The translations under genes were made by a program, and so were the position numbers. Below, in pieces: positions 3,428-53,772 of a DNA stretch of 64,000 nt. Source of the DNA: a virus (taxonomy: Duplodnaviria > Heunggongvirae > Uroviricota > Caudoviricetes); IMG/VR virus record IMGVR_UViG_3300046315_000035; one strand, 5' to 3'. Numbering within the stretch: the stretch's first letter is position 1; each line of letters opens with the position of its first letter. A model generated the notes under the pieces. The model was not told the DNA's origin, ran no database searches, and saw only the letters and a list, made by a program, of their open reading frames with translations.

Positions 3428-4633
3428 ATGGCAAGTAAGATTATATTAAAGAAGTCATCGGTAGCTGCTAAAGCTCCTGTAGCTGGTGATTTAGATTTTG
3501 GCGAATTAGCTATTAACTATACAGACAGTAAGTTATATTTTAAGAAAGCTGATGGTTCAATTGACGCTTTTTCAAGTGCAGCAGCTTCTGCTCCTGTTAG
3601 TTCAGTAGCTGGTTACACAGGTGCTGTAACTGCAACAAATTTACTAGACGCAATTAAAACTGTAGATGGTGCAGGTAGCGGTTTAGACGCAGATACTTTA
3701 GATGGTTTATCTTCAGCTTCTTTTTACTTAGCAAGCAACCCTAACGGTTATACAAGTAATTTAGGTACAGTAACTAGCGTAGGTGCTACATCTCCTGTTG
3801 TCTCTTCTGGTGGCACTACTCCTACGATCTCTATGCCAGCGGCTACTGCTAGTGCAAACGGTTATATGACTGCTGCATATGCGAGTAAATTAGATGGTGT
3901 TGCTGCAGGTGCTACAAACGTAACCAATACCAATCAGTTAACTAACGGCGCAGGGTATATTACTAGTACTGGCTCTATCAGTGGTAATGCTGCTACTTCT
4001 TCACAAAGTTATCAAAACACCAATCCTACTTCTAGTACTTATCGTATTTTACTTGGTAATGGTACTAATAGTAACGGACCAGTCTATAATTATTCAGCTT
4101 TATATTGGAATAATGCTACCGCTACTATTGAGGGTGCAAACATTAGTGGTAATGCGGTAACTGTGACACACCCTTTTCCATCGGGAACCAGACTCCCTTT
4201 TGCTCAAGCAAGTGCTCCTGTAGGTTGGGTACAAGATACTAGTGACAACGCAAATAATCGTATGTTAAGGGTTGTAAATACTGCAGGAAACGGTGTTGGA
4301 GGTTCTAGTGATCCTATTCTGAATAATGTTGTACCATCACACACGCATGGATTCTCAACAGGCACTCAATCAGCAAACCATAACCACGGAATTTCAGACC
4401 CAACACACCGACATGATATTCGTTTACACTGGACAGCCGCTAGTGCTCCCGGTCAACTTTCTGGTCGTGAAAACAACTTTGCTGCGACAAGGGTGTCAGA
4501 GTATGCTTCAACTGGTATTTCCACCGGAACAAATAGTGTAAGTCACACACACTCTGGTACAACGGATAATGGATCAAGTCAAACAAGTTGGACACCAAGA
4601 TATATTAACATGATTATTTGTACGAAAGGTTAA
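3428..4633 (+). CDS. tail fibre protein with His-rich (HxH) C-terminal tip
   Basis: ATG at 3428. Gly/Thr/Ser-rich body; the C-terminus carries HTHGF, NHNHG, THRHD and SHTHSG motifs resembling the metal-binding HxH motifs of T4 fibre tips. Confidence 0.6.
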   Translation: MASKIILKKSSVAAKAPVAGDLDFGELAINYTDSKLYFKKADGSIDAFSSAAASAPVSSVAGYTGAVTATNLLDAIKTVDGAGSGLDADTLDGLSSASFYLASNPNGYTSNLGTVTSVGATSPVVSSGGTTPTISMPAATASANGYMTAAYASKLDGVAAGATNVTNTNQLTNGAGYITSTGSISGNAATSSQSYQNTNPTSSTYRILLGNGTNSNGPVYNYSALYWNNATATIEGANISGNAVTVTHPFPSGTRLPFAQASAPVGWVQDTSDNANNRMLRVVNTAGNGVGGSSDPILNNVVPSHTHGFSTGTQSANHNHGISDPTHRHDIRLHWTAASAPGQLSGRENNFAATRVSEYASTGISTGTNSVSHTHSGTTDNGSSQTSWTPRYINMIICTKG

Positions 4634-36274: not shown

Positions 36275-36910
36275 TTAAAATGGAATGTCATCGTCATCAT
36301 CAGGGGTTGCTGCAGGTTTAGCTTTTGGTTTAGCTGCAGCCTTAGCTTTTGGTGCTGGTGCTGGTTCTTCAGCTTCATCATCAAATTCGCTACCAGCTTC
36401 GTATCCTGCACCCTCTTCGGCTACATATTCAATCATTGAAGTAACTAGTACATTCTTTAGATAGAAAGATGTAGTGCCGTTAGTGCGCTCAAACTTATCA
36501 ATGCTGATTGAACCGTAAGAACCATTTGCAGGTAGCTTACTGTTAGTAACATCAACTAGTGCTTTACCGACTTTCTCAAAGACTTTTGGCTTGTACAAAT
36601 CAGGTACAGGTTTACCAGTTTTACCTAGCTCTGTAGACTTGCGTAATGTTACAACCCAAATATTCTTACCTGCATCTTCTGGAGGTGCTACTTTATAGAT
36701 ACCTTCAAATTCACTGGTTTTAACCTTCTTGATTGAAGTCTTGGCATCTACTTGTTTAGCGAATGCTTCGTATTCATCTAGTACATCTTCATCAGTAATG
36801 GCTACCGAAGCTTTCCATTCATCTGGCTTTGGTGCATCACCTGCTTTAACATAACCTTTGACTGGTTTGTGTAGTTGTACATAGAGAAGCATACCTGTTA
36901 GTTTTTGCAT
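36275..36910 (-). CDS. ssDNA-binding protein with host-SSB-like acidic C-terminal tip (DDDDDIPF)
   Basis: The C-terminus ...ATPDDDDDIPF copies the E. coli SSB tail DDDIPF, and an Ala/Pro/Lys-rich linker precedes it. Confidence 0.5.
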   Translation of the reverse strand: MQKLTGMLLYVQLHKPVKGYVKAGDAPKPDEWKASVAITDEDVLDEYEAFAKQVDAKTSIKKVKTSEFEGIYKVAPPEDAGKNIWVVTLRKSTELGKTGKPVPDLYKPKVFEKVGKALVDVTNSKLPANGSYGSISIDKFERTNGTTSFYLKNVLVTSMIEYVAEEGAGYEAGSEFDDEAEEPAPAPKAKAAAKPKAKPAATPDDDDDIPF

Positions 36911-36973
36911 AATATTTCCTTTCGACTATTAATAAAAGACTCTACTTATGACGGAAGTAGTAACCGAAGTGCA

Positions 36974-37002
36974 ATTATAGCAAACTGCAAATGCTTTGTC
37001 AA
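36974..37002 (-). promoter_or_regulatory. consensus sigma70 promoter TTGACA-17-TGcTATAAT (minus strand)
   Basis: On the minus strand the sequence reads TTGACAAAGCATTTGCAGTTTGCTATAAT, upstream of the SSB gene. Confidence 0.6.
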
Positions 37003-37117
37003 TAGTTAATTGACTTTATTTTGGTGGACAACAACGGGAATCTAACCCGCTTTCTCCTCCTATGCTATTAGGAAGTTTCATACCAGCATCAGGTAATTGA
37101 CACATCATGTCCGTTTT

Positions 37118-37192
37118 TGGTGGGTCAGACTGGACTTGAACCAGCACTATCTCGATTATGAGTCGAGGGCTTCACCTTTAAGCTACTGACCC
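37118..37192 (-). tRNA. tRNA-Met (anticodon CAT; elongator or lysidine-Ile type)
   Basis: Cloverleaf with acceptor GGGTCAG/CTGACCC, anticodon arm CTCGA-CTCATAA-TCGAG, T-arm GCTGG-TTCAAGT-CCAGT and an encoded CCA. Position 1:72 is paired, so it is not an initiator. Confidence 0.7.
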
Positions 37193-37204
37193 GCTGGTCA
37201 TTAA

Positions 37205-37543
37205 TTATTCGTAAACAATAACTGTTTTCTTTTCAGGTGTTACAAACTTATAACCTTGGTAATCTGTACCATAGTGTGATGCATACCAACCGTAGAACTT
37301 AACAAAGCAATCTTCACCGCTTTTGCTAAACTTCCATACGCACCAGTAGTCAGAACCTTGATCTTCACCACCGTAGCAATCTACTGCTGTGTAATTGATC
37401 AAATTATTGTCAAGTGCCTTTTCAATTTCACCATAACAGTTACTTTCATCCATCATATATCCTAGTGAATTATCAGTTACACTATCAAATATAACCTGTA
37501 AAGCTTCTTTAAGACTCATATAACTCTCCTTATTTCTTTTCAA
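37205..37543 (-). CDS. hypothetical protein, tandem paralogue A (YGGEDQGSDYW motif)
   Basis: Shares the C-terminal domain ..YGGEDQGSDYW.V..FS....V.F.KF.GWYAS..G with 37530-37883. Confidence 0.5.
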   Translation of the reverse strand: MKRNKESYMSLKEALQVIFDSVTDNSLGYMMDESNCYGEIEKALDNNLINYTAVDCYGGEDQGSDYWCVWKFSKSGEDCFVKFYGWYASHYGTDYQGYKFVTPEKKTVIVYE

Positions 37544-37883
37544 ATACAGTGATAGTTTTCTCTACGGGTTTGACCTCATAGAACTCTTCGTAGGTTGAAC
37601 CATCGTAAGATGCATACCAACCATTAAACTTAATGAATACAACCTGCATACCATCTGAGAATGAATACACACTCCAGTAGTCAGAACCTTGGTCTTCACC
37701 ACCATAGCGATCTACGAGTTCGAAGTTGATTTTAGCTTCTCTGAGTTGCTTTCTAAAGTCTTTAACACTCTTAGTGTCCCAATCGTATTCAGAAGTAAAC
37801 TCACAATCGAAAAATTCAGTTTTAACTTCAGTATCAGCTTCTACAAGTAGTGCATTGACTCTATCAATTAATTTATCAGACAT
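37530..37883 (-). CDS. hypothetical protein, tandem paralogue B (YGGEDQGSDYW motif)
   Basis: Paralogue of 37205-37543 with a divergent N-terminus. Confidence 0.5.
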   Translation of the reverse strand: MSDKLIDRVNALLVEADTEVKTEFFDCEFTSEYDWDTKSVKDFRKQLREAKINFELVDRYGGEDQGSDYWSVYSFSDGMQVVFIKFNGWYASYDGSTYEEFYEVKPVEKTITVFEKK

Positions 37884-37884
37884 A

Positions 37885-38697
37885 TTACTCCTTTAGTAAA
37901 ATTTGTTTAACATTTTCAAACTTAGCAGCATCAAACATATCCAAGACTTCTGTATAGTTATCAATTGCATAATCACGAAACCAACCTGAACATAGTGTAG
38001 TACAAATCTTATTTACTGATTTATAAAACGCTAGTTTAGTTGGTGCTTTCCAATCGCTAGGCACTAAAAACCTTTCGGTTGAAATAACATAAGCTTCTTC
38101 TGCAATGCATCTGAGTTTGTCTGCATGGCTTAGATTGTACCACAGATTTTTATCACACCACGCTAACTTTGAATCTTTTTGCAGTTTTTTATACAAGGGT
38201 TCTTCATGGTAAGCAAACAATTCGTGCAAGTAGTCATGATTATACTTCTTAGTTACTGCATCATCAAAGAAACCTTCTACTGTTTGCATCAAGTTCGGAT
38301 TACCTTGTGGATATGCTGACATAGTAAGCTTGATGCGTTTATTCAGTACATCTTCATCCTTATCAGTAAAGAAGGGACGAAATGCTTTTAAGTACATATT
38401 GTATTGTGTCATGTGCTTTTCAAACTTACGATCACGCCATAGGTGACTGCGCTTTACAATTGCAAGACCAACAGGGTTGACTACGTAAACTCTTTGACCT
38501 GCAATTTCAATCCAGTGCGTACTTGCATAGTTTAACAGATCGTAATTAGCGACTTGATTAAACGTATGGTGCTCAATACGCTTTGTTGTATCAGTAATTT
38601 TATGTTCACTGATAACGTCCCAATCTGAATCTGGCTTTGCTTTAAAGATGTTACTCCAGTATTGCAATGCTTGTGAACCAATCAATAGATTTTTCAT
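37885..38697 (-). CDS. hypothetical protein, possible pol-beta-type nucleotidyltransferase
   Basis: N-terminal LLIGSQALQYWSNIFKAKPDSDWDV resembles the GS...DxD nucleotidyltransferase-fold motif. This is a weak assignment. Confidence 0.35.
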   Translation of the reverse strand: MKNLLIGSQALQYWSNIFKAKPDSDWDVISEHKITDTTKRIEHHTFNQVANYDLLNYASTHWIEIAGQRVYVVNPVGLAIVKRSHLWRDRKFEKHMTQYNMYLKAFRPFFTDKDEDVLNKRIKLTMSAYPQGNPNLMQTVEGFFDDAVTKKYNHDYLHELFAYHEEPLYKKLQKDSKLAWCDKNLWYNLSHADKLRCIAEEAYVISTERFLVPSDWKAPTKLAFYKSVNKICTTLCSGWFRDYAIDNYTEVLDMFDAAKFENVKQILLKE

Positions 38698-39017
38698 TCC
38701 TACTCCTTAGTTATAGTTCAGTACATTCCGTATCTTAGAGTAGAGTCCTGCAATTACGCCGACTTTTCGTCCCAAATAGTAAACCACGTTCGTTTACCCA
38801 ACCTGAAATATACTGAACTATAACCTCTGGTCCCTAAACCAGTATTATAGTGTCTTATTACATCCGGACGACAATCCTTTGGTCTAGAAATCCGTATACG
38901 AAGTCCACCATCACTCGTATATTTTACCCATATGTGGCAAGATTTATGCTCATATGGCGCTGAAGTGTGCTGTTAACTCTAGGGATATGAGCAACAAGCA
39001 TAGCGGGACTAATTATT

Positions 39018-39092
39018 TGGTACGGCGTAGTGGAATCGAACCACTATTGAATGCTTAGAAGGCACTTGCACTATCCGTTGTACTAACGCCGT
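39018..39092 (-). tRNA. tRNA-Arg (anticodon TCT)
   Basis: Perfect acceptor stem ACGGCGT/ACGCCGT, anticodon arm AGTGC-CTTCTAA-GCATT, T-arm AGTGG-TTCGATT-CCACT and an encoded CCA. Confidence 0.8.
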
Positions 39093-39119
39093 TTAAATAT
39101 GGTCAAGATTTACCTATGT

Positions 39120-39149
39120 ATTCTAACAGAAATCAATCCATTGAGTCAA
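39120..39149 (-). promoter_or_regulatory. sigma70-like promoter TTGACT-18-TAGAAT for tRNA-Arg (minus strand)
   Basis: On the minus strand the sequence reads TTGACTCAATGGATTGATTTCTGTTAGAAT, about 25 nt upstream of the tRNA 5' end. Confidence 0.45.
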
Positions 39150-39234
39150 TAGGTCTATGCTTTGCAACTCGTTTATCTTGATGCTGTTACAGCTTCCGAG
39201 TGTAGCTAAGGTGCGACCTTAGCATCAACCTCAA

Positions 39235-39426
39235 TTATACATCAATTTCCAACTCCATGTCAACATTTCGCAAAATATTTTCTTTGATATTTAACCTAGC
39301 TAATTCGTTAAGATCGGACTGAGGCATACTCATACTAGATCGAAGTATACCATATTTATCAAACTGTTGCAACGTCTGATACTCTTTATCGTACTTGTAC
39401 TGGTAACTCATAGTTCCATCCTTCAA
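39235..39426 (-). CDS. hypothetical small protein
   Basis: 63 aa. Confidence 0.35.
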   Translation of the reverse strand: MKDGTMSYQYKYDKEYQTLQQFDKYGILRSSMSMPQSDLNELARLNIKENILRNVDMELEIDV

Positions 39427-39799: not shown

Positions 39800-41986
39800 T
39801 TAAACCTTTCCGATAACTAGCTTTTCAGCTTCTTGTACATAGTATTCAAAGTCGATATCACCATCAAAGTCTTGCATGTTGTTACAAGTCTTGACATTCC
39901 AAGCGGTATCAATACCAAGTCTACGATCTGACTTATCTTCATTGTCTTCCAATGCTGGCATCAACTTGATTAGTTTACCACCTGACTTAGAAGGGTAGTA
40001 CCTGCAGATGTTTTGTTGTTGCTCTACTCTTGCATCTTCAAATTCTAGCACAAGTTTTGAACTGCGAGGAACTTTTGTGCGTAGCATGAAATCAAAGATG
40101 TTTCCAGCTTCAAAGTGCTCTTTGATAAATTCTCTTACGTCTTTACCATGTAGCATAGCAGCTTCTGCAGCCATTGGAATCACTAGACTACCTTGGTTTT
40201 GATGCCATCCCAAATCTTCGTATTGATATGCACCTTTGCGCTTAACCTTACCATTTGTGTACAACGCAATATAATTATTTACGTCTCTAATATACATGTT
40301 CTTGTAATCCACAAACTCTAGCTCAAGCTTTACATCCTTTTGCCATTGATCGCAAATCGCATTATACTGCTCTTCACTGTCTCGTGTCATAGCTACAGTC
40401 AAACCATCGGTGTTTAGCTGCACTAATTTTAGCTTTGGAATCTGTAACAAACGATCCGCAAGCATCAACAAAGACAACTGACCGTTGATGGTAATTGACA
40501 TTGTAAACTTCGGGTCATAGAACACAGAGTATTTATCGTTGCTTTTACCATAAGTACCGTTGAGTGCAAGTTTGAGCATTGCATTCTCAGGAGTATTCTT
40601 TGCATATGACTTACGCTGTTCATACATGTCTTGATAAATCACACAGAACTCTGCACCTAAATGCTCAGGATAAATCTTATTTGAGATAGCGATGTTTGGA
40701 TACATTGAGCTAACATCAGCATCACGAAGCATGTAGGTTTTACCTGCACTAGCAATTCGTTCAGATAATGAAGCATGTACACCACCTACACCAAAATCAA
40801 TGCGATAACCGTCTACAAGGACGTTTAGTGTCTCAGCAATACGGTAGCATCCCCAATAGGATTTCTTGGGTACTCTGACCTTCTTAGGCTTCTTACCAAG
40901 GTCTGGACAACCATCTGCATCCAATACGTACTCAGTTACATGCTGACCGTTTGCATCAAACAGATATTCTGTAGCTTTGAGTTCTTCTACTTCAATCCAA
41001 CCCATAGGATGTTGATTCTTGAAGTCATCATTATCTCGTTCAGTTGGAGCACCTTTAAACTTCTTACGCTTTACAGTAAGGTTTGCATACTTTGCAACTT
41101 CACCAAGATTATGCTCTTCAATATCTGAAAACACACCCTTAGTCTCAGTGATTACCTGCTTAGAAAACCAATCATAAACAGCTTGGAATTCTGGACGATC
41201 AAACTTATAGTATTTGAACAAACAGTCTTTAATTGCAATCTTGTCTCGCTTGGTTTGCATCATGACTTTCTTACCGTCTTTGAACGTGTGCAGCTTAACA
41301 CCTGAATCCTCAAGCTTCATTTGAAAGTATTCTGCACCAATCTTAGTGTCATCAGCATTGGTAAAGTCACGACCAAGTTTGATACTCAGATTATCCCTGA
41401 ATTCAATTTGTGTAAGAGACTTAAGATAAAATGCAAGCGTACATCGCACATCGTGCATGTTGTATGTTTTGAGTCTGTCAATCTCATCACCTGTTAATTC
41501 TGCATCTACAGCATAAGGCAAGTCTTCGATGTTATCCATACGCATGTTGAATTCTAGCATCTTAAGACCAGTGGCTTTTGCTTTGTTATTAAAGTGATGA
41601 ATGCGATACAGGTCAACTTGCTTGATAACTTGTTCATCAGTTTTGATGCTATGACCAAATCCGTTATCCTTGAAGGAGTCAATCTGTTTTTGTGCAAGCT
41701 TGTATACAGCAGCAGCAACTTGCTTACCACTCTTAGCTTCCCAAGACCTACGATTGGTCAAAACTTCATGCAAGATTGGATAGTCGAATCCTACGTTGTT
41801 AAAGCCTACCAAACGACCTGTAGTGGCTTCAATGTGATCTACACAAGCGTAGATACGGTCAAGTTCATTTGTACGCTCAGAAACCTCAAATACTCGTGGA
41901 AACTTACCATCTGCACGAATGACAGCAAACGTAAAAGCTGACTTATATGTCTCAAGGTCATAAATCCAGTCTTTTGTCAAATCCAT
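39800..41986 (-). CDS. DNA polymerase, family B type with N-terminal 3'-5' exonuclease
   Basis: Exonuclease motifs YDLET, GFNNVGFDYPIL and YNMHDV. Polymerase motifs DADVSSMYPNIAIS (DxxSLYPS-like), KLALNGTYGKS (KxxxNSxYG-like) and QLNTDGL. Confidence 0.75.
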   Translation of the reverse strand: MDLTKDWIYDLETYKSAFTFAVIRADGKFPRVFEVSERTNELDRIYACVDHIEATTGRLVGFNNVGFDYPILHEVLTNRRSWEAKSGKQVAAAVYKLAQKQIDSFKDNGFGHSIKTDEQVIKQVDLYRIHHFNNKAKATGLKMLEFNMRMDNIEDLPYAVDAELTGDEIDRLKTYNMHDVRCTLAFYLKSLTQIEFRDNLSIKLGRDFTNADDTKIGAEYFQMKLEDSGVKLHTFKDGKKVMMQTKRDKIAIKDCLFKYYKFDRPEFQAVYDWFSKQVITETKGVFSDIEEHNLGEVAKYANLTVKRKKFKGAPTERDNDDFKNQHPMGWIEVEELKATEYLFDANGQHVTEYVLDADGCPDLGKKPKKVRVPKKSYWGCYRIAETLNVLVDGYRIDFGVGGVHASLSERIASAGKTYMLRDADVSSMYPNIAISNKIYPEHLGAEFCVIYQDMYEQRKSYAKNTPENAMLKLALNGTYGKSNDKYSVFYDPKFTMSITINGQLSLLMLADRLLQIPKLKLVQLNTDGLTVAMTRDSEEQYNAICDQWQKDVKLELEFVDYKNMYIRDVNNYIALYTNGKVKRKGAYQYEDLGWHQNQGSLVIPMAAEAAMLHGKDVREFIKEHFEAGNIFDFMLRTKVPRSSKLVLEFEDARVEQQQNICRYYPSKSGGKLIKLMPALEDNEDKSDRRLGIDTAWNVKTCNNMQDFDGDIDFEYYVQEAEKLVIGKV

Positions 41987-43789: not shown

Positions 43790-44836
43790 TTATTCATTTT
43801 TGAGCAACCAACTGTTACTCACACACTTGAATGATCGATCATGCACAGTGTTACTCTTAAACACAATACCTTCACGGTTACTGCCGTTGATTAAAGACTT
43901 ACCTTCTGCGTATTCCAAGATACTTTGAATCGTTTGTTCTTTAATCTCAGTGGCTTCTACAATGACAGGCACATGCTTTAACCCAAGCTTTTCACACGCT
44001 GCTTTAAGTTGTACAGGCAAGATGTATTGCCCTGTATGAGTATTGTACATGTCGTAAACGTAGAAGTCAAGCTGTACTTTGTACTGATTACCTTGAATAC
44101 CTTCACCGATCATTTCACCTTGAATTGCCATACCTAGCATAGAATTCCTACGCATGATATCTTCAATTTGAAACTTACGTGCTACTTTCCAGAATGAATT
44201 TGCTTCGTCTTCTTTCAAGTCTAAGTTACGTGAGCATACATGAAATACACCTTCGTCATCAAGATAGAATGTGCAAGATGAACCATCAAGTTTTTCTGTG
44301 ATTGACCACGTATCAAGCTGATATTGCTCAAAAGATCGTGTCAAGTTTTGGATACGCTCTTGATCAGTCTTTGGTACAAGCGCAGGGAAATTACCTCGTG
44401 CCATACCAGCGAGTTGAGCATTCATTGGGCGTTCCCATTTGAGAATACCCAAGTGTTCTGTCAGGTCTAAACCTTCACTGATAAGAATACCTGCACCTTT
44501 GATGGTATCTTCTGGAATAGGTAACAGTAGTCCTTGTGAGATTTGACCACGTAGTTTTACTGTACGTAGACGTTCACCTTTAACACCTTCAAATTCACGA
44601 GGTTCTTTACCTTTGGATAGGAATGGTGCAAGTTCTGTTGGAACCCAAGAATCAATTTCGAGGTACACGGCGAGTGAATCAACTGCAAATTCACCCTTCT
44701 TTACTACGACTTTCCAACCATCGACTACAGCGACTTCAATAGCGTCTGCACCTTCGATGGGTTCAATTGCTGCGATTTTACGAATAGTTGCTAATTTACG
44801 TTCTGTCATTTGTTTCTCCTTTTCTGTTTCCGTCAA
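43790..44836 (-). CDS. ATP-dependent ligase with N-terminal OB-like domain (RNA ligase-like, DraRnl type)
   Basis: Motif I EKLDGSS (KxDG). The N-terminus RKLATIRKI..IEPIEGADAIEVAVVDGWKVVVKKGEF is typical of OB-NTase RNA ligases. Confidence 0.5.
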   Translation of the reverse strand: MTETEKEKQMTERKLATIRKIAAIEPIEGADAIEVAVVDGWKVVVKKGEFAVDSLAVYLEIDSWVPTELAPFLSKGKEPREFEGVKGERLRTVKLRGQISQGLLLPIPEDTIKGAGILISEGLDLTEHLGILKWERPMNAQLAGMARGNFPALVPKTDQERIQNLTRSFEQYQLDTWSITEKLDGSSCTFYLDDEGVFHVCSRNLDLKEDEANSFWKVARKFQIEDIMRRNSMLGMAIQGEMIGEGIQGNQYKVQLDFYVYDMYNTHTGQYILPVQLKAACEKLGLKHVPVIVEATEIKEQTIQSILEYAEGKSLINGSNREGIVFKSNTVHDRSFKCVSNSWLLKNE

Positions 44837-49705: not shown

Positions 49706-50131
49706 ATGCTACTCAAGAACGAATTCTACCACATGATCAACCATCTAGGTCTAGAAGATGGTGAACTAGCGTTAGCTGAAATCGTGTGGGAGAAAGCTGA
49801 ACGTGCTATGCAAGGTAAACCTGTACAAGAAGCTAAGTTGCTTAAGAGTACAGTGTTTGAGCGCAACAGTGATCCTTATGCTTTGACACAAGCTGAACTG
49901 CAGTCTCTTACTGTAGGTCTAGCGCAGGTACTTACACACGAGCAAGAGGTGCTGCAAAAACTGAAAGAGCGAATTGATCATTGCTGGCGTAAGAGCGAAC
50001 CCAATAACGCAGATACAGAAGTTTGGTTCAATCAAATGAATGAGCATCGTAACTTTCAGCGCAAGATCAAGAAAGATCATGCTGTACTATCTCGTATTCA
50101 ATACAAACTTAAACGCCAACAAGGTAAATAA
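49706..50131 (+). CDS. hypothetical early protein
   Basis: RBS GAAAGGAAA. Confidence 0.4.
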   Translation: MLLKNEFYHMINHLGLEDGELALAEIVWEKAERAMQGKPVQEAKLLKSTVFERNSDPYALTQAELQSLTVGLAQVLTHEQEVLQKLKERIDHCWRKSEPNNADTEVWFNQMNEHRNFQRKIKKDHAVLSRIQYKLKRQQGK

Positions 50132-50132
50132 A

Positions 50133-50480
50133 TTGACACGCAAACGCTATGAAATCATTGCTACAGCCTTCGATAAGAAAGGTCGTGTACTAGGTACTGG
50201 AGTTAACGACTACAACCGCAGTCACCCACTCATGAAGCACTTTGCTGTACAAGCTGGAGAGTCAGAGCAAAAAGATAAGGTCCATGCAGAATTATCTGCG
50301 GTACTTGCATCAGGTCGTAAAAATATTCATAGCGTTTTTGTTCAGCGGTTCCATAACAATGGTACAATGGCTACTGCTAAACCGTGTCCAACTTGCCAAG
50401 CTATGCTCAAAGGCTTTGGTGTTAAAGTTGTTCGTTATACAACTGAAGAAGGAATCAAGGAGTATGAAATAAATGGCTGA
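50133..50480 (+). CDS. cytidine/dCMP deaminase-fold protein (short paralogue)
   Basis: VHAELSAVL plus KPCPTCQAML give the HAE...PCxxC zinc-binding signature. Start taken as TTG 50133 with an AAGG RBS 8 nt upstream. Confidence 0.45.
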   Translation: MTRKRYEIIATAFDKKGRVLGTGVNDYNRSHPLMKHFAVQAGESEQKDKVHAELSAVLASGRKNIHSVFVQRFHNNGTMATAKPCPTCQAMLKGFGVKVVRYTTEEGIKEYEING

Positions 50481-50913
50481 TCAAAAATCTCTAGATGCAA
50501 CCTACATGGGAACTGCTATATTGCACAGTAAGCTCTCCAAGGCTCGTAGAGCGCAAGTAGGAGCGATTCTAGTGACTAGGCAAGGTGTTACCCTTACTGG
50601 CTACAATGGGACTGCTGTAGGTCGCCCTAACGAATGCGAAGAAGAAATTTGGAACGGGCATGATCAGGGTACATGCTTAGTTACTAAACCAGAAGTCATC
50701 CATGCAGAACTTAACTGCATCATGAAAGCTGCTCGTGAAGGCGTAAGCTGTGTAGATGCTACAGTTTATGTTACACTAGCACCTTGTGTACAGTGCGCTG
50801 CTATGATGCTTCAAGCTGGAGTTAAGCGTGTGGTGTATTTGCAACAGTACAGAGATGATTCTGGTGTTAAACTACTGCAGGAATCAAATGTAATGGTAGA
50901 AGCTTATGCTTAG
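50473..50913 (+). CDS. dCMP deaminase
   Basis: GAILVTRQGVTLTGYNGTA, HAELNCIMKAA and TLAPCVQCAAMM match the dCMP deaminase pattern. Confidence 0.65.
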   Translation: MADQKSLDATYMGTAILHSKLSKARRAQVGAILVTRQGVTLTGYNGTAVGRPNECEEEIWNGHDQGTCLVTKPEVIHAELNCIMKAAREGVSCVDATVYVTLAPCVQCAAMMLQAGVKRVVYLQQYRDDSGVKLLQESNVMVEAYA

Positions 50914-51118
50914 ATGGTCCGGTACTGCGTTTTATATGATCAGCATGATCTTAACAACGTTGAATGTGTTTCCATTAAATTTACTATTCGGTTTCATCGG
51001 TGGATTTTTATGGTGTCTAGCTGGTTGGTTTAGCTATAAAGATAAAGCCTTGATTCTAGTCGAGGGTGCTTCTGCAGCTATTTACTTATTCGGTTTAATT
51101 AATTGGAGTTTAAAATGA
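50906..51118 (+). CDS. small membrane protein
   Basis: Two hydrophobic segments. Confidence 0.3.
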   Translation: MLRWSGTAFYMISMILTTLNVFPLNLLFGFIGGFLWCLAGWFSYKDKALILVEGASAAIYLFGLINWSLK

Positions 51119-51624
51119 ACGATCAAATTAAAGCTGGCGCTGATATCCATGCTGGTGACGGTGGTTACAGCGAAGGTACATTAGAAGGTTATGAACAATT
51201 TTCTAAAGCTCGAAATGCATCCAGAGGTAAACCTACTTTGTATTTAGTTAGAGGCTGTCCCGGTTCGGGTAAATCAACCTTTGCACAATGCCTACTGGAT
51301 GAATTTGTAGTACAACGCATCTATGAAGCTGATCAATACTTTGTACAAAATGGTGAATACCAATTTGATCCTACGCACCTTGAACAAGCGCACAATGACT
51401 GCAAGCGCAAAACTTGGCTTGCTCTCTACGAAGGCATGTCAGTAGCTGTATCAAATACATCTTGCGCTGAGTGGGAAGTCGAAACTTATGCTACAATTGC
51501 ACGAGAGACTGAAGCTAACTTTGTGAGTATCATTGTTGAGAATCGGCACGAAGGTAAGAACATTCACGGTTGCCCTGATGCTAAAGTCGAACAAATGAAA
51601 AGGAAATTTGATGTGCGACTATAA
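51115..51624 (+). CDS. polynucleotide 5'-kinase-like P-loop kinase (T4 Pnk kinase-domain type)
   Basis: Walker A LVRGCPGSGKSTFAQ closely matches the T4 Pnk kinase-domain P-loop GCPGSGKST. Confidence 0.55.
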   Translation: MNDQIKAGADIHAGDGGYSEGTLEGYEQFSKARNASRGKPTLYLVRGCPGSGKSTFAQCLLDEFVVQRIYEADQYFVQNGEYQFDPTHLEQAHNDCKRKTWLALYEGMSVAVSNTSCAEWEVETYATIARETEANFVSIIVENRHEGKNIHGCPDAKVEQMKRKFDVRL

Positions 51625-51636
51625 AGGAGTTATGAA

Positions 51637-52530
51637 ATGTTAAGTTATGATGAACAAATCAATCTAGTTAATCGTGCATTGGTTACTATGAAAACCGATG
51701 GCGAATACACTACGTTTAAATACGCTCGTAAAGCAATGTATGAATATCTTTGGGAAAAAGTACCTGCTTTGTGTGAATCTCGTGGACATGTATATTCTAA
51801 TATTACAAAAGAATTAGTACAAGCTGCTCCACGTAAGAGCTTCAATTATCTTGAACATTGTTATTGGAAAGATGTTCTTTTAGATACTCCAGTTGAAATG
51901 TACAAGAAAATCAATGGTTATATGGCCTGTGCTACATTACACAATGACAAACTTGTAGTTAGCACTACAGGTACTACAACAAGTGATTACGCTATGTGGG
52001 CTAAAGAGCTAATCCAACGTGATTACAAGTTGTTGGACGAAATGATTGATGACAAAGCTACGGTTCTTTTTGAAGTTGTAGTACCACAAGACCCTCATAT
52101 TGTACAAGAGCGCAAAGGTTTACATCTGCTTGGTATACGTGAGAAAGATACAGGAGATTTTTACCCTCTGAGTACACCTATAAGATGCACTTTAGAGCAA
52201 GCATTGGAAATTGCAAAGCATGATCATGGTGAAGGTTTTATGCTGTATCCTTTTCTAAATAAAGGTGAAAATATTGGTTACTATGATTACAACAATTGCT
52301 GTAAACTAAAGACTCCATACTACATCGGTAAGAAAAAGTTGATGCGTATGACAGCAAAGAATGTTGAAATCATGTATACTCAGACAGCTAGTGCATTTAA
52401 TTCTTTTCATTTACCAGAGATGTGGCATAATGCATCTAATTATATTGTGCAAAGCGTTCATAAAGATACATGGTTATCTATGAATGATCAACAACGCAGG
52501 GTAGTTCTTGAAGATTTTATGGGAGTTTAA
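51637..52530 (+). CDS. hypothetical protein, possible RNA ligase (KxNG motif)
   Basis: YKKINGYMA is a candidate nucleotidyltransferase motif I. The gene sits between the kinase and phosphoesterase genes. Confidence 0.3.
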   Translation: MLSYDEQINLVNRALVTMKTDGEYTTFKYARKAMYEYLWEKVPALCESRGHVYSNITKELVQAAPRKSFNYLEHCYWKDVLLDTPVEMYKKINGYMACATLHNDKLVVSTTGTTTSDYAMWAKELIQRDYKLLDEMIDDKATVLFEVVVPQDPHIVQERKGLHLLGIREKDTGDFYPLSTPIRCTLEQALEIAKHDHGEGFMLYPFLNKGENIGYYDYNNCCKLKTPYYIGKKKLMRMTAKNVEIMYTQTASAFNSFHLPEMWHNASNYIVQSVHKDTWLSMNDQQRRVVLEDFMGV

Positions 52531-53103
52531 ATGAAAATATTTACAAGTGATTTGCACTTTGGTCACAAACGAATTGTAGAATTTACAAATCGTGCTGTTG
52601 ATTGCGGTTCACAAGATAATCACACACGATGGTTAATCGACCTTTGGAACATTGAAGTATCTGCGGGTGATATTGTTTATCATCTAGGAGATTTCTCATT
52701 CTTTAAAAATTATAATGAAGTAGCTGATGTTGTATTACAACTCAAGGGTTCTAAGATTTTCATCAAGGGCAATCATGACAAGCGAGAGCATCTAGATCAA
52801 CTTGTAAAAGACCAACTGATCGCAGCATGGTATGATTACAAAGAGATTAAACTAGGTGATACACCTGTAGTATTATTTCACTTTCCTATTGCATCGTGGC
52901 ATCGGCAAGGTTATGGTGCATATCACTTACATGGTCATTGTCATGGAAACTTTAAAGATTACCGAGGTAAAATGCTTGACGTAGGTATTGATTCGGTATA
53001 TAATCTGTATGGTAAGCATGGATTTCTTGATGAACATCAGATCATTGAGTTCATGAAAGAAAAAGAACTGTACATTGCAGATCATCACAAAGAAAGGCTA
53101 TAA
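52531..53103 (+). CDS. metallophosphoesterase (calcineurin-like phosphatase)
   Basis: SDLHFGH, HLGDFSF and KGNHDK match the calcineurin-like phosphoesterase motifs. Confidence 0.65.
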   Translation: MKIFTSDLHFGHKRIVEFTNRAVDCGSQDNHTRWLIDLWNIEVSAGDIVYHLGDFSFFKNYNEVADVVLQLKGSKIFIKGNHDKREHLDQLVKDQLIAAWYDYKEIKLGDTPVVLFHFPIASWHRQGYGAYHLHGHCHGNFKDYRGKMLDVGIDSVYNLYGKHGFLDEHQIIEFMKEKELYIADHHKERL

Positions 53104-53772
53104 ATGCAAAAGATTGAAGATTACACCACAGCAAAGCTAATTGCTTACTCACAAGCCACCGAAGAGTTTAAAGGGCAGTTCAAGACGATTAAAGACCTTG
53201 TAGCGTACTGCGCTAGGGTAAGCAATCCAAGCAACCAACTCAACATGGAAACCTCTGATAAGCTTATTGGTTATCTATTGAAACACAAGCACTTTAGTCC
53301 GTTTGAAATGGCAAGCATTACTATTGAAGTTGAAACAACTCGTGATATTGCTCGTCAACTACTACGTCATCGCAGCTTTACATTTCAGGAGTTTAGCCAA
53401 CGCTATGCAGACCCTACAAAAGACTTGACGTTTGTAACTCGTGAAGCACGACTACAAGACCCCAAGAATCGTCAGAACTCTGTTATTACTGATAATTTAG
53501 CATTGCAGTCAATGTGGGAGAACTACCAAAATAAAGTTATTCAGACTGCACAAGATGCATATGCTTTTGCTATTACCAATGGTATCGCCAAAGAGCAAGC
53601 TCGTGCTGTACTGCCAGAAGGTTGTACAATGTCTCGTTTATATGTACAAGGAACTGTGCGTAGTTTCATTCATTATATTGAAGTGCGTAAAACTAATGGT
53701 ACACAATTAGAGCACGTTGTACTAGCACAAAAAGCTGCAGAAGCTATCTCAAAGGTTTTCAATGTTGAATGA
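53104..53772 (+). CDS. thyX: flavin-dependent thymidylate synthase
   Basis: ThyX signature RHRSFTFQEFSQRY (RHRxxxxxxxSxR). Confidence 0.8.
   Translation: MQKIEDYTTAKLIAYSQATEEFKGQFKTIKDLVAYCARVSNPSNQLNMETSDKLIGYLLKHKHFSPFEMASITIEVETTRDIARQLLRHRSFTFQEFSQRYADPTKDLTFVTREARLQDPKNRQNSVITDNLALQSMWENYQNKVIQTAQDAYAFAITNGIAKEQARAVLPEGCTMSRLYVQGTVRSFIHYIEVRKTNGTQLEHVVLAQKAAEAISKVFNVE

Follow-up and report, generated by a model that had tools for sequence, protein, structure and literature searches.

The window, by which we mean the whole 64,000-nucleotide stretch of viral DNA that was analysed, carried three ORFs on the minus strand between two tRNA genes, namely 37885-38697 (270 aa), 37530-37883 (117 aa) and 37205-37543 (112 aa). 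The tRNA genes were recognised by both ARAGORN and Rfam and the ORFs were taken from the ORF list, so that the arrangement described in the initial annotation, with two tRNAs bracketing three genes, was borne out. The first gene encoded a predicted nucleotidyltransferase (NTase) and the two others encoded small paralogues with a common domain, which we call YGGE after its motif. These three genes had the layout of one operon. The start codon of YGGE-1 (37530..37883, minus strand, 117 aa) was 1 nt past the stop codon of the NTase gene, YGGE-1 and YGGE-2 were separated by 10 nt, and the tRNA-Met gene began 12 nt past the stop codon of YGGE-2. The ORF of YGGE-2 reached up to a TTG at 37543; judging from the sequence, its start was most likely the ATG at 37519, which was preceded by an AAGGAG ribosome-binding site and coincided with the point where the homologue P0240 starts with MSLKQALQ. 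This start would give a protein of 104 aa (37205..37519, minus strand). Thus, of the two tandem paralogues initially reported as 112 and 117 aa long, the paralogy and the longer length were retained, and the downstream protein was most likely 104 aa long.

The segment 37118-39092 had also been called an island. However, it had no compositional signature of an inserted element (GC content of 0.37 both within and outside it) and it was syntenic among related phages. It was a conserved part of the early/replication region in this phage clade, where the NTase-YGGE pair had the DNA polymerase on one side and the SSB/exonuclease genes on the other, with variable small ORFs adjoining.

Both tRNA genes were located on the minus strand and encoded their own CCA ends. 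The tRNA-Arg(TCT) gene (39018..39092) scored 59.5 bits with the Rfam tRNA model, and its presence had a simple explanation since AGA accounted for 110 of the 409 arginine codons (27%) in the long ORFs of the phage. The tRNA(CAT) gene (37118..37192, 66.9 bits) was of the elongator type and was called as Met; its identity may also be Ile2, and ATA codons were rare in the phage (39 of 612 isoleucine codons). An additional, unannotated tRNA-like RNA gene was found by eye and by a pattern search and was then folded (37022..37112, minus strand). It began 5 nt beyond tRNA-Met, just outside the coordinates 37118-39092 of the initial annotation, and was the third tRNA-type gene there. In this RNA of about 91 nt, which terminated in ACCA on the 3' side, an acceptor stem and a T-arm could be recognised, and the anticodon arm was replaced by a central hairpin of 7 bp closed by a 6-nt loop (AUAGCA). 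Pair counts gave 97.7% of cells as paired, with compensatory changes in 3 pairs. A covariance model (R1) located it at 12 loci, every time adjoining the tRNA genes of this module; it was present in just 18 IMG/VR contigs and was confined to one phage clade. ARAGORN did not call it under default settings, and an Rfam scan of 36800-39400 returned the two tRNAs and nothing else. Its placement directly beside phage tRNA genes was shared with the T4 species 1 and 2 RNAs (rnaC and rnaD), which are small stable RNAs without known function. The two cases were compared by their features, and the RNA described here was distinguished by its length, a clear acceptor/T-arm minihelix, the ACCA end and its restriction to one clade.

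Upstream of the tRNA-Arg gene, a sigma-70-like promoter (TTGACA-18-TATAAT, 12/12 match) was located at 39234..39263 on the minus strand, within the end of a 63-aa ORF. Another site resembling a promoter (TTGACT-18-TAGAAT, 10 of 12 positions matching, extended by TG) was found 28 nt upstream of the same tRNA gene (39120..39149, minus strand), and a further site with a 12/12 match was found on the minus strand at 37002-36974. The consensus promoters noted initially were thus present as individual promoter-like sites, but the total number of promoter-like sites was not above that in shuffled controls. The 320 bp of non-coding DNA noted earlier corresponded exactly to the gap 38698-39017, a leader on the minus strand that was kept among related contigs (alignment A5) and contained a TATAAT box at 38844-38849. 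It had no ORF of at least 40 aa on the minus strand and no Rfam match. A long-range hairpin of about 21 bp (38709..38825, minus strand) folded with -47.7 kcal/mol (z=-4.96), and none of 200 shuffled sequences was equally stable. Its 3' arm ended beside the Shine-Dalgarno sequence of the NTase gene, and both arms were present in a compensatory version in the aligned lineage L021. This hairpin may be where an enzyme of the RNase III type processes the transcript, or it may control translation.

The 270-aa protein (37885..38697, minus strand) matched Pfam DUF7275 with 186.5 bits (cut-off 27) and DUF7277 with a borderline 27.5 bits (cut-off 27), while T4-like homologues scored 265 and 94 bits, respectively. 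Apart from these, the only Pfam hit was a weak one to DUF1779 (E up to 1); there was no match to the DUF1814 profile, none in NCBIfam and none in PADLOC at E up to 1. A search against PDB chain sequences gave no MenT match for the NTase and no meaningful match for either the NTase or the YGGE family, and no mention of the NTase-YGGE family was found in published papers. The earlier statement that the three genes were undescribed and had no recognisable function thus held only in part: the NTase was already catalogued in Pfam (DUF7275/DUF7277) and in PHROG families, but no function was given there, and the YGGE domain had no Pfam entry.

It had been pointed out that the N-terminus of this protein was reminiscent of Pol-beta-type NTases, and this observation was confirmed. 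The sequence LLIGSQAL...DSDWD, with the GS of LLIGS at residues 7-8 and DSDWD at residues 23-27, contained the hG[GS] and Dh[DE]h signature of the superfamily. The two parts were spaced by 16 residues, slightly more than the textbook 9-13. Residues G7, S8, D25 and D27 were invariant in 52 close homologues as well as in 11 diverse ones from proteobacterial to actinobacterial phages. As for the third acidic residue, E42 was invariant in the close family, and the Gordonia, Streptomyces and T4-like members had an acidic residue nearby, in a region where the alignment was ambiguous. The polar residues K82, H154-D155 and E200-E201 of the C-terminal lobe were invariant too. A confident AlphaFold model had the Pol-beta NTase fold with its alpha/beta core. 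In a fold search with this model, the nearest solved structures were the tRNA-modifying toxins MenT1, MenT3 and MenT4 (MenT/AbiEii), a likeness by fold and not by sequence. Aminoglycoside and lincosamide NTases were matched as well, and a substrate can therefore not be assigned from the fold by itself. The matches also included the minimal NTases (MNTs) JHP933 (4ok0) and TM1012 (2ewr), although the MNT structures ranked below MenT.

The two YGGE proteins shared 45% identity over 80 aa (E=1e-23). This similarity was limited to their C-terminal parts, in agreement with the initial description of a common C-terminal domain and divergent N-termini. The motif D.YGGEDQGSDYW...F.KF.GWYAS was conserved throughout the family, E63 and S92 were kept, Y90 was present in nearly all members, and there was no conserved His. 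The predicted fold was alpha+beta, with helices followed by a five-strand sheet and no HEPN-like helical bundle; Pfam did not detect a HEPN domain either. No match to Pfam, including its structural and virion families, was obtained, and neither the PDB sequence search nor the fold search revealed such a match or a clear structural relative. Longer YGGE proteins had two copies of the domain, and no known domain was fused to it. The members of the YGGE clusters were annotated as hypothetical proteins in every case. The PADLOC profile PD-Lambda-2_A (HigB-like) matched 13 of 39 YGGE members, yet weakly and with no backing from the fold search, and a RelE/HigB-like identity was not adopted.

An NTase gene followed by one to five tandem YGGE genes was a nearly obligate pair in phages. 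A YGGE ORF was located on the same strand within 1 kb downstream of the NTase in 36 of 38 NTase lineages, and the NTase was just upstream at 45 of the 48 loci obtained by a YGGE-seeded search. The hosts of the pair-bearing phages belonged to Proteobacteria and Actinobacteria, and cultivable relatives included Limnohabitans phage DC31, Curvibacter phage P26059A and the Gordonia phages BrutonGaster and Cucurbita. We found the pair with 2-5 tandem YGGE copies in Gordonia phages, a Streptomyces phage, and Nocardia and Mycolicibacterium genomes, the last two being probably prophage loci. Longer homologues (300-325 aa) from T4-like, Otagovirus and Phapecoctavirus phages had no YGGE partner and no tRNA in the vicinity, and were located amid unrelated early genes. 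Overall, the NTase family was present in 735 GenBank phage records and the YGGE domain was represented in some 1,550 clusters of proteins built at 50% identity. A scan of 185,579 species genomes with a single degenerate peptide pattern returned 6 loci (metagenome bins, Nocardia and Mycolicibacterium), and since only one such pattern was used, the description of the pair as phage-restricted is provisional.

The pair also recurred beside or within tRNA clusters in several independent lineages. It was located inside tRNA clusters in the lineages L169, L176, L178 and L185 and adjoined them in Gordonia phages, and the tRNA species near it varied between lineages. A tRNA gene was present within 1 kb of the pair in 11 of 49 lineages, and tRNA density was 0.27 per kb at 0-0.5 kb compared with 0.08-0.16 per kb further out. 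Counted by lineage at the 60% level, the association was no more than roughly two-fold, and many pair-bearing lineages had no tRNA within 6-8 kb. The neighbouring genes were sorted by BLAST clustering, local HMMs and Pfam spot checks. Those confirmed by Pfam included RNA ligases of the Rnl1 type and of PF09414, Pnkp and calcineurin-like phosphoesterases. In one case the RNA ligase gene was only 57 bp upstream of the NTase gene, and in another a phosphoesterase gene overlapped its start. An RNA ligase or Pnkp gene was located within 5 kb of the pair in 12-14 of 49 lineages, and about 3-5% of GenBank phages carry such genes at all. The proposed link to tRNA biology was thus strengthened by the recurrence of the pair next to tRNA clusters and RNA-repair genes in unrelated phages, but it was modest and did not extend to the homologues in T4-like, Otagovirus and Phapecoctavirus phages.

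An RNA-repair cassette was encoded in the same genome on the plus strand (51103..53103), opposite to the module and 12 kb from it. According to local HMMs, it consisted of a P-loop polynucleotide-kinase-like gene (51103-51624; Pfam AAA_33, phrog_505), an Rnl1-like RNA ligase (51637-52530; phrog_562, E=4e-38; T4 Rnl1 structure 2c5u, E=6e-5) and a metallophosphoesterase (52531-53103; Pfam Metallophos_2; phrog_547, E=1e-43). The ligase was divergent, since it had no Pfam match at E of 0.01 or better; its K-I-N-G was aligned with K-E-D-G of T4 Rnl1, including the motif I lysine. In the T4-type repair of tRNA, Pnkp and Rnl1 act against the damage by the PrrC anticodon nuclease. These enzyme types recurred as neighbours of the module, but the NTase and YGGE are outside the described T4 healing-and-sealing pathway, and the tRNA-flanking region of T4 contained a homologue of neither.

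The module could also be compared with two other groups of NTases. Class II CCA-adding enzymes (PF01743), encoded by phages and hosts alike, are members of the same superfamily that work on the 3' ends of tRNAs, and phage genes for them often lie close to tRNA clusters. In contrast, the NTase described here was much smaller (270 aa), had a separate small partner and was located next to tRNAs that already encoded CCA. Its identification as an enzyme of this class was rejected, as Pfam and NCBIfam searches revealed neither a PolyA_pol (PF01743) head nor the motifs A-E. HEPN-MNT pairs, in which a minimal NTase AMPylates its partner, likewise have a small NTase next to a small partner gene. However, YGGE was not a HEPN protein according to its helices and five-strand sheet, its lack of a conserved His and its lack of a Pfam match, and the fold matches favoured MenT over MNT; this identity was rejected as well.

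The recurrence of the pair near tRNA and RNA-repair genes in many unrelated phages suggested that it may help to keep tRNAs functional in infected cells. We started from a predicted fold in which the catalytic motifs were preserved, from a pairing that was close to obligate, from the arrangement of the genes as an operon, and from the tRNA and RNA-repair genes that turned up repeatedly nearby. We tentatively favour, at somewhat less than an even chance, a two-component module that modifies the ends of RNA or tRNA and serves in tRNA maintenance, tRNA repair or counter-defence. An anti-defence activity, which had been proposed at the beginning, is something that we only infer. Such a module would combine a phage-specific NTase of Pol-beta fold, MenT-like in structure, with one or more small YGGE partners. 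The operon would be co-transcribed with the flanking tRNA genes and the tRNA-like RNA, and the transcript would probably be processed at the tRNAs and at the leader hairpin. The NTase would add nucleotides onto RNA 3' ends, chiefly those of tRNAs, and would work beside healing and sealing enzymes of the T4 type (polynucleotide kinase/phosphatase and RNA ligase), the likely benefit being repair and not damage. The YGGE paralogues, which occur in tandem and differ in their N-termini, may be substrate-selecting or regulatory subunits. Counting against this reading, the CCA of both local tRNAs was genome-encoded, a CCA-adding enzyme is presumably supplied by the host, and the repair cassette of this phage was remote from the module.

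An unlikely alternative is a toxin-like host takeover, in which the NTase would extend or block the 3' ends of host tRNAs in the manner of MenT/AbiEii and so bring translation in the host to a stop. The YGGE proteins would then be antitoxin-like inhibitors or regulators, and the phage tRNAs next to the module would be resistant replacements. The nearest solved structures and the position next to phage tRNA genes pointed in this direction, and the tandem arrays of diversifying small partners looked like arrays of immunity genes. A tight two-gene arrangement of an NTase and a small partner is also known from MenAT and AbiE (PMC7450476). Members of the DUF1814/MenT family have a conserved Lys as motif III and a motif IV of their own, at K189 and D211 of MenT3, respectively (PMC7450476); the invariant K82, H154-D155 and E200-E201 of the NTase would be candidates for equivalent positions. 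However, the NTase was not a DUF1814 protein by sequence, in either Pfam or PADLOC, and it had the distinct DUF7275 as its C-terminal lobe. Its alpha+beta partner was encoded downstream, often in tandem arrays, and was unrelated to MenA or AbiEi, and the genes belonged to lytic phage genomes rather than to bacterial toxin-antitoxin or defence loci. Moreover, the recurring neighbours were repair enzymes (ligase, Pnkp and phosphoesterase), suggesting that RNA was restored rather than damaged, and the varying tRNA species did not follow a single replacement logic.

The favoured tRNA-end module can be taken further, to a version that we consider rather unlikely: the pair may be a new arm of phage tRNA repair, where a template-independent NTase rebuilds the nucleotides that host defences strip from tRNAs and the YGGE paralogues choose the tRNA targets. 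The rebuilt parts would be trimmed CCA ends, or excised residues of the anticodon loop that are beyond the reach of Pnkp and ligase alone, and the tRNA-like RNA might be a substrate, a decoy or a guide.

It is also improbable, in our estimate, that the module has a role unrelated to tRNA, for instance in the metabolism of nucleotides or DNA or in some other early process, and that its closeness to tRNA and repair genes reflects the gathering of accessory genes in common variable, highly expressed slots. In this clade the module occupied a variable slot of the replication module, between the polymerase and SSB/exonuclease genes, and therefore tRNAs could gather there for expression reasons. The modest tRNA enrichment, the unrelated early genes around the large-phage homologues, and the AGA codon usage that accounted for tRNA-Arg(TCT) agreed with this explanation. 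On the other hand, the adjacency recurred across differing layouts (the left arm of Gordonia phages, the inside of tRNA clusters in contigs of more than 100 kb, and next to an RNA ligase in Streptomyces phages), and ligase or Pnkp genes within 5 kb of the pair in about a quarter of the lineages were far above a genome-level prevalence of about 5%. Finally, we regard as distinctly improbable an MNT-antitoxin-like enzyme that nucleotidylylates the YGGE proteins or a host defence nuclease and so neutralises a tRNA-targeting defence: a minimal NTase with a small partner is a known theme with representatives among the fold matches, E63, S92 and the nearly constant Y90 are candidate targets and the tRNA/RNA-repair context fits counter-defence, but the predicted YGGE fold and the lower rank of MNT structures argued against it.

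The view that the tRNA genes and tRNA-repair enzymes of phages counter bacterial defences that cut or block tRNAs is gaining ground, and to our knowledge the phage toolkit for tRNA repair is essentially Pnkp and RNA ligase. The main new result of this analysis was the near-obligate NTase-YGGE pairing in phages, which makes a widespread, uncharacterised gene pair a candidate extra component of that toolkit. Should the pair turn out to be a MenT-like toxin carried by phages, it would represent a new mechanism of host takeover. Should it serve to repair or protect the ends of tRNAs, the healing-and-sealing model would be extended, two DUFs and one unnamed domain would receive a function, and a recurrent feature of phage tRNA regions would be explained.

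Exactly two tRNA genes were called by ARAGORN in the 64-kb window, both on the minus strand: tRNA-Met(CAT) at 37118-37192 and tRNA-Arg(TCT) at 39018-39092 (Rfam 66.9 and 59.5 bits, respectively). The interval between them held three ORFs (270, 117 and 112 aa) on the minus strand, and ARAGORN, Rfam and the ORF calls together bore out the initial annotation of three genes bracketed by two tRNAs. The predicted nucleotidyltransferase (NTase) gene (37885-38697) was separated by 1 nt from the 117-aa gene YGGE-1 (37530-37883), which was followed after 10 nt by its paralogue YGGE-2 (37205-37519) and, 12 nt farther, by tRNA-Met. The probable start codon of YGGE-2 is the ATG at 37519, preceded by an AAGGAG site, giving 104 aa. 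As for the promoters attributed to the segment, perfect sigma-70 consensus sites were present at 39263-39234 and 37002-36974 (both minus strand) and a 10/12 promoter-like site directly preceded tRNA-Arg; the total of promoter-like matches was no higher than in shuffled controls. Since GC content was equal inside and outside the tRNA-to-tRNA segment, it was not a compositional island, and that description had to be abandoned.

The window was a phage genome (GC about 37%) distantly related to Limnohabitans phage DC31 and Curvibacter phage P26059A. The module segment was located within the replication/early block, with a PolB-exonuclease-type DNA polymerase (39800-41986) and a primase-helicase on one side and an SSB-like protein and a 5'-3' exonuclease on the other. 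The sign of coding strand and GC skew switched at about 28000 and 50000, and therefore this minus-strand block was bounded by two plus-strand blocks. A ligase combining a PHA02142 OB-fold with a PF09414 'RNA ligase' domain (43790-44836, minus strand) adjoined the primase-helicase; it could be a nick-sealing phage ligase or a second RNA ligase. DC31, which was 74% identical to the window in nucleotide sequence across the module segment, had tRNA-Met, a single YGGE paralogue and the 270-aa gene at the matching position. The P26059A locus carried tRNA-Arg(TCT), the 270-aa gene, one YGGE paralogue and an odd 99-nt element (3472-3570), which ARAGORN labelled tRNA-Pyl(cta) both there and in L061; it separated tRNA-Arg from the NTase gene and was probably another non-canonical tRNA-like element.

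The NTase matched DUF7275 (186.5 bits) and, at threshold, DUF7277 (27.5 bits) in Pfam as well as the uncharacterised entries phrog_2141 and phrog_6944, and had no match in NCBIfam or PADLOC. Its homologues formed 591 clusters in a metagenomic protein collection, all unnamed, and occurred in 735 GenBank phage records (tblastn). Across 52 homologues, G7, S8, D25 and D27 were invariant, as were E42, H44, K82-H85, H154, D155, H158, E200, E201, E208 and R209, and most of these residues persisted once Gordonia, Streptomyces and T4-like members joined the alignment. An alignment-based AlphaFold2 model was confident (pLDDT 91.7, pTM 0.86), with a helical lobe after a beta-alpha-beta-beta-alpha-beta-beta core. 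The invariant motifs and the model upheld the earlier NTase call. MenT toxins belong to the DUF1814 NTases and have been reported to act on tRNA acceptor ends by nucleotide addition (PMC7450476). Because no sequence profile connected the two families in Pfam, PADLOC or a PDB sequence search, membership in MenT/DUF1814 was not adopted, and we treated the NTase as a separate family within the Pol-beta NTase superfamily with MenT-type enzymes as its closest solved relatives. A MenT-like host-shutoff toxin with the YGGE proteins as regulators was one rival reading, and an MNT-like protein-modifying enzyme was another. We found no publication mentioning DUF7275, DUF7277, phrog_2141, phrog_6944 or a phage MenT-like NTase.

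As initially proposed, the two small genes were paralogues with C-terminal likeness only (45% identity across 80 residues, E=1e-23). Neither had a match in Pfam, NCBIfam or the PDB sequences, and their sole assignments were uncharacterised PHROGs. An exhaustive profile search (E <= 1e-3) recovered the YGGE domain in 1,550 clusters at 50% identity, nearly all of 95-150 aa, with a few of 190-230 aa that contained the domain twice; none of ten longer members had a Pfam domain. The conserved portion comprised about 60 C-terminal residues behind divergent N-terminal halves, and E63, G88, S92, V104 and P106 were invariant in the family, actinophage members included. The PADLOC model PD-Lambda-2_A ('HigB-like') matched weakly though recurrently and was not adopted, as a fold search gave it no backing.

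The two families were tightly paired. Among 80 NTase-seeded IMG/VR loci clustered at 85% identity, 36 of the 38 lineages with enough downstream DNA had a same-strand YGGE ORF within 1 kb downstream. Reciprocally, the NTase was immediately upstream in 45/48 diverse YGGE-seeded loci, with one to five tandem YGGE ORFs behind it. Nocardia and Mycolicibacterium genomes, at loci that were probably prophages, had three to five YGGE copies behind the NTase, and Streptomyces phage TunaTartare had the order RNA ligase, NTase, YGGE-like gene. The exceptions were homologues of 300-325 aa in T4-like, Otagovirus and Phapecoctavirus phages, which had neither a YGGE partner nor nearby tRNAs. Roseophage DSS3_VP1 (Naomviridae; L007/L150, 576-947, and L087) carried, besides the pair, a second, separate YGGE gene near the record start.

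The association of the pair with tRNA genes was real and modest. Grouping at 60% NTase identity gave 49 lineages; a tRNA was found within 1 kb of the module in 11 of these and within 6 kb in 20. The density of tRNA genes fell from 0.27 per kb in the first 0.5 kb to 0.19 per kb at 0.5-1 kb, and was 0.08-0.16 per kb farther away. The YGGE domain did occur beside tRNAs in other phages: the pair was embedded in tRNA clusters in L169, L176, L178 and L185, abutted tRNA genes in L144, L161 and Gordonia phages (in Cucurbita and BrutonGaster the NTase homologue and two YGGE-domain genes led directly into a tRNA cluster), and in L084 was 2.6 kb away from a cluster of 28 tRNAs. The placement of tRNA-Arg(TCT) and tRNA(CAT) around the pair varied within the freshwater clade, with the two tRNAs together upstream, together downstream or one on each side, and about nine lineages carried the pair without a tRNA inside 8 kb. 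Since AGA accounted for 27% of the window phage's Arg codons, an ordinary codon-usage explanation was available for tRNA-Arg(TCT). Comparison of window 38698-39100 (minus strand) with close relatives (L008, L009, L012, L019, L021) revealed two clearly different tRNA-Arg(TCT) alleles upstream of a 320-bp spacer that was conserved even when the allele differed. In some relatives, additional tRNA-like inserts separated tRNA-Arg from the spacer, a pattern suggesting exchange of tRNA genes into and out of this slot.

The spacer, which forms the leader of the NTase gene, contained a TATAAT box and a long-range hairpin of about 21 bp (38709-38825, minus strand) ending at that gene's Shine-Dalgarno sequence. 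It folded at -47.7 kcal/mol (z=-4.96), had compensatory changes in both arms in the relative L021, and may function in RNase III processing or in translational control. We also identified an unannotated 91-nt tRNA-like RNA (37022-37112, minus strand) 5 nt downstream of tRNA-Met, which was called by neither ARAGORN nor Rfam. It was predicted to have an acceptor stem, a T-arm and a 3' ACCA end, with an invariant 7-bp hairpin and 6-nt loop replacing the anticodon arm. The proposed structure, scored on seven variants, had 97.7% of its cells paired and compensatory changes at three pairs. A covariance model found it at 12 loci, each beside the module's tRNA genes, and an exact-pattern scan of IMG/VR in only 18 contigs; it is restricted to the window's phage clade. 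The nearest analogy came from T4, whose small stable RNAs rnaC and rnaD are encoded next to tRNA-Arg.

Clustering of the neighbour genes of the 49 lineage representatives, with recurring families confirmed by Pfam, pointed to RNA repair. An Rnl1-type RNA ligase lay 1.6-3.5 kb from the module in L086, L088, L187, L188 and, more weakly, L084; a PF09414 RNA ligase was near it in L006 (57 bp), L074, L188, L175, L177, L172 and L144, and Pnkp (kinase plus HAD_PNKP domain) in L172, L179 and L187. A ligase or Pnkp was within 5 kb in 14/49 lineages (12/49 minus two kinase-only hits). Because these three gene types matched few of the 50,697 GenBank phage records (1,698, 2,355 and 335), we put the likelihood of chance adjacency below about 1%, as our own estimate rather than a formal test. 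Calcineurin-like phosphoesterase genes recurred as well: in L177 one followed the module after 37 bp, seven further lineages had one nearby, and in L084 (5402-8001 of a 163-kb viral contig) the stop codon of one was overlapped by the start of the NTase gene. This L084 group was downstream of the tRNA cluster, and a weakly matching dual-specificity phosphatase lay farther upstream of the NTase. The window phage itself had a contiguous RNA-repair cassette (51103-53103, plus strand) of a P-loop polynucleotide-kinase-like protein (51103-51624), a divergent Rnl1-like RNA ligase (51637-52530; phrog_562 E=4e-38, T4 Rnl1 structure E=6e-5) and a metallophosphoesterase (52531-53103). The cassette lay between a pair of neighbouring genes of the cytidine/dCMP-deaminase family and a thymidylate synthase gene of the ThyX type (50040-50913 and 53104-53772, plus strand).

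An unrelated function, with the neighbourhood reflecting shared accessory-gene slots, was a third rival reading. The analysis established the NTase fold and motifs, the NTase-YGGE pairing, the operon-like gene order and the recurring neighbours, whereas the substrate of the NTase, what the YGGE proteins do and the direction of benefit are inferred. The recurrent tRNA and RNA-repair neighbours of the pair strengthened the earlier idea of tRNA maintenance, with anti-defence no more than a candidate role. The reading that the evidence best supports is that the NTase and YGGE proteins form a two-component NTase module, specific to phages, whose function is linked to the metabolism of tRNA or RNA ends.
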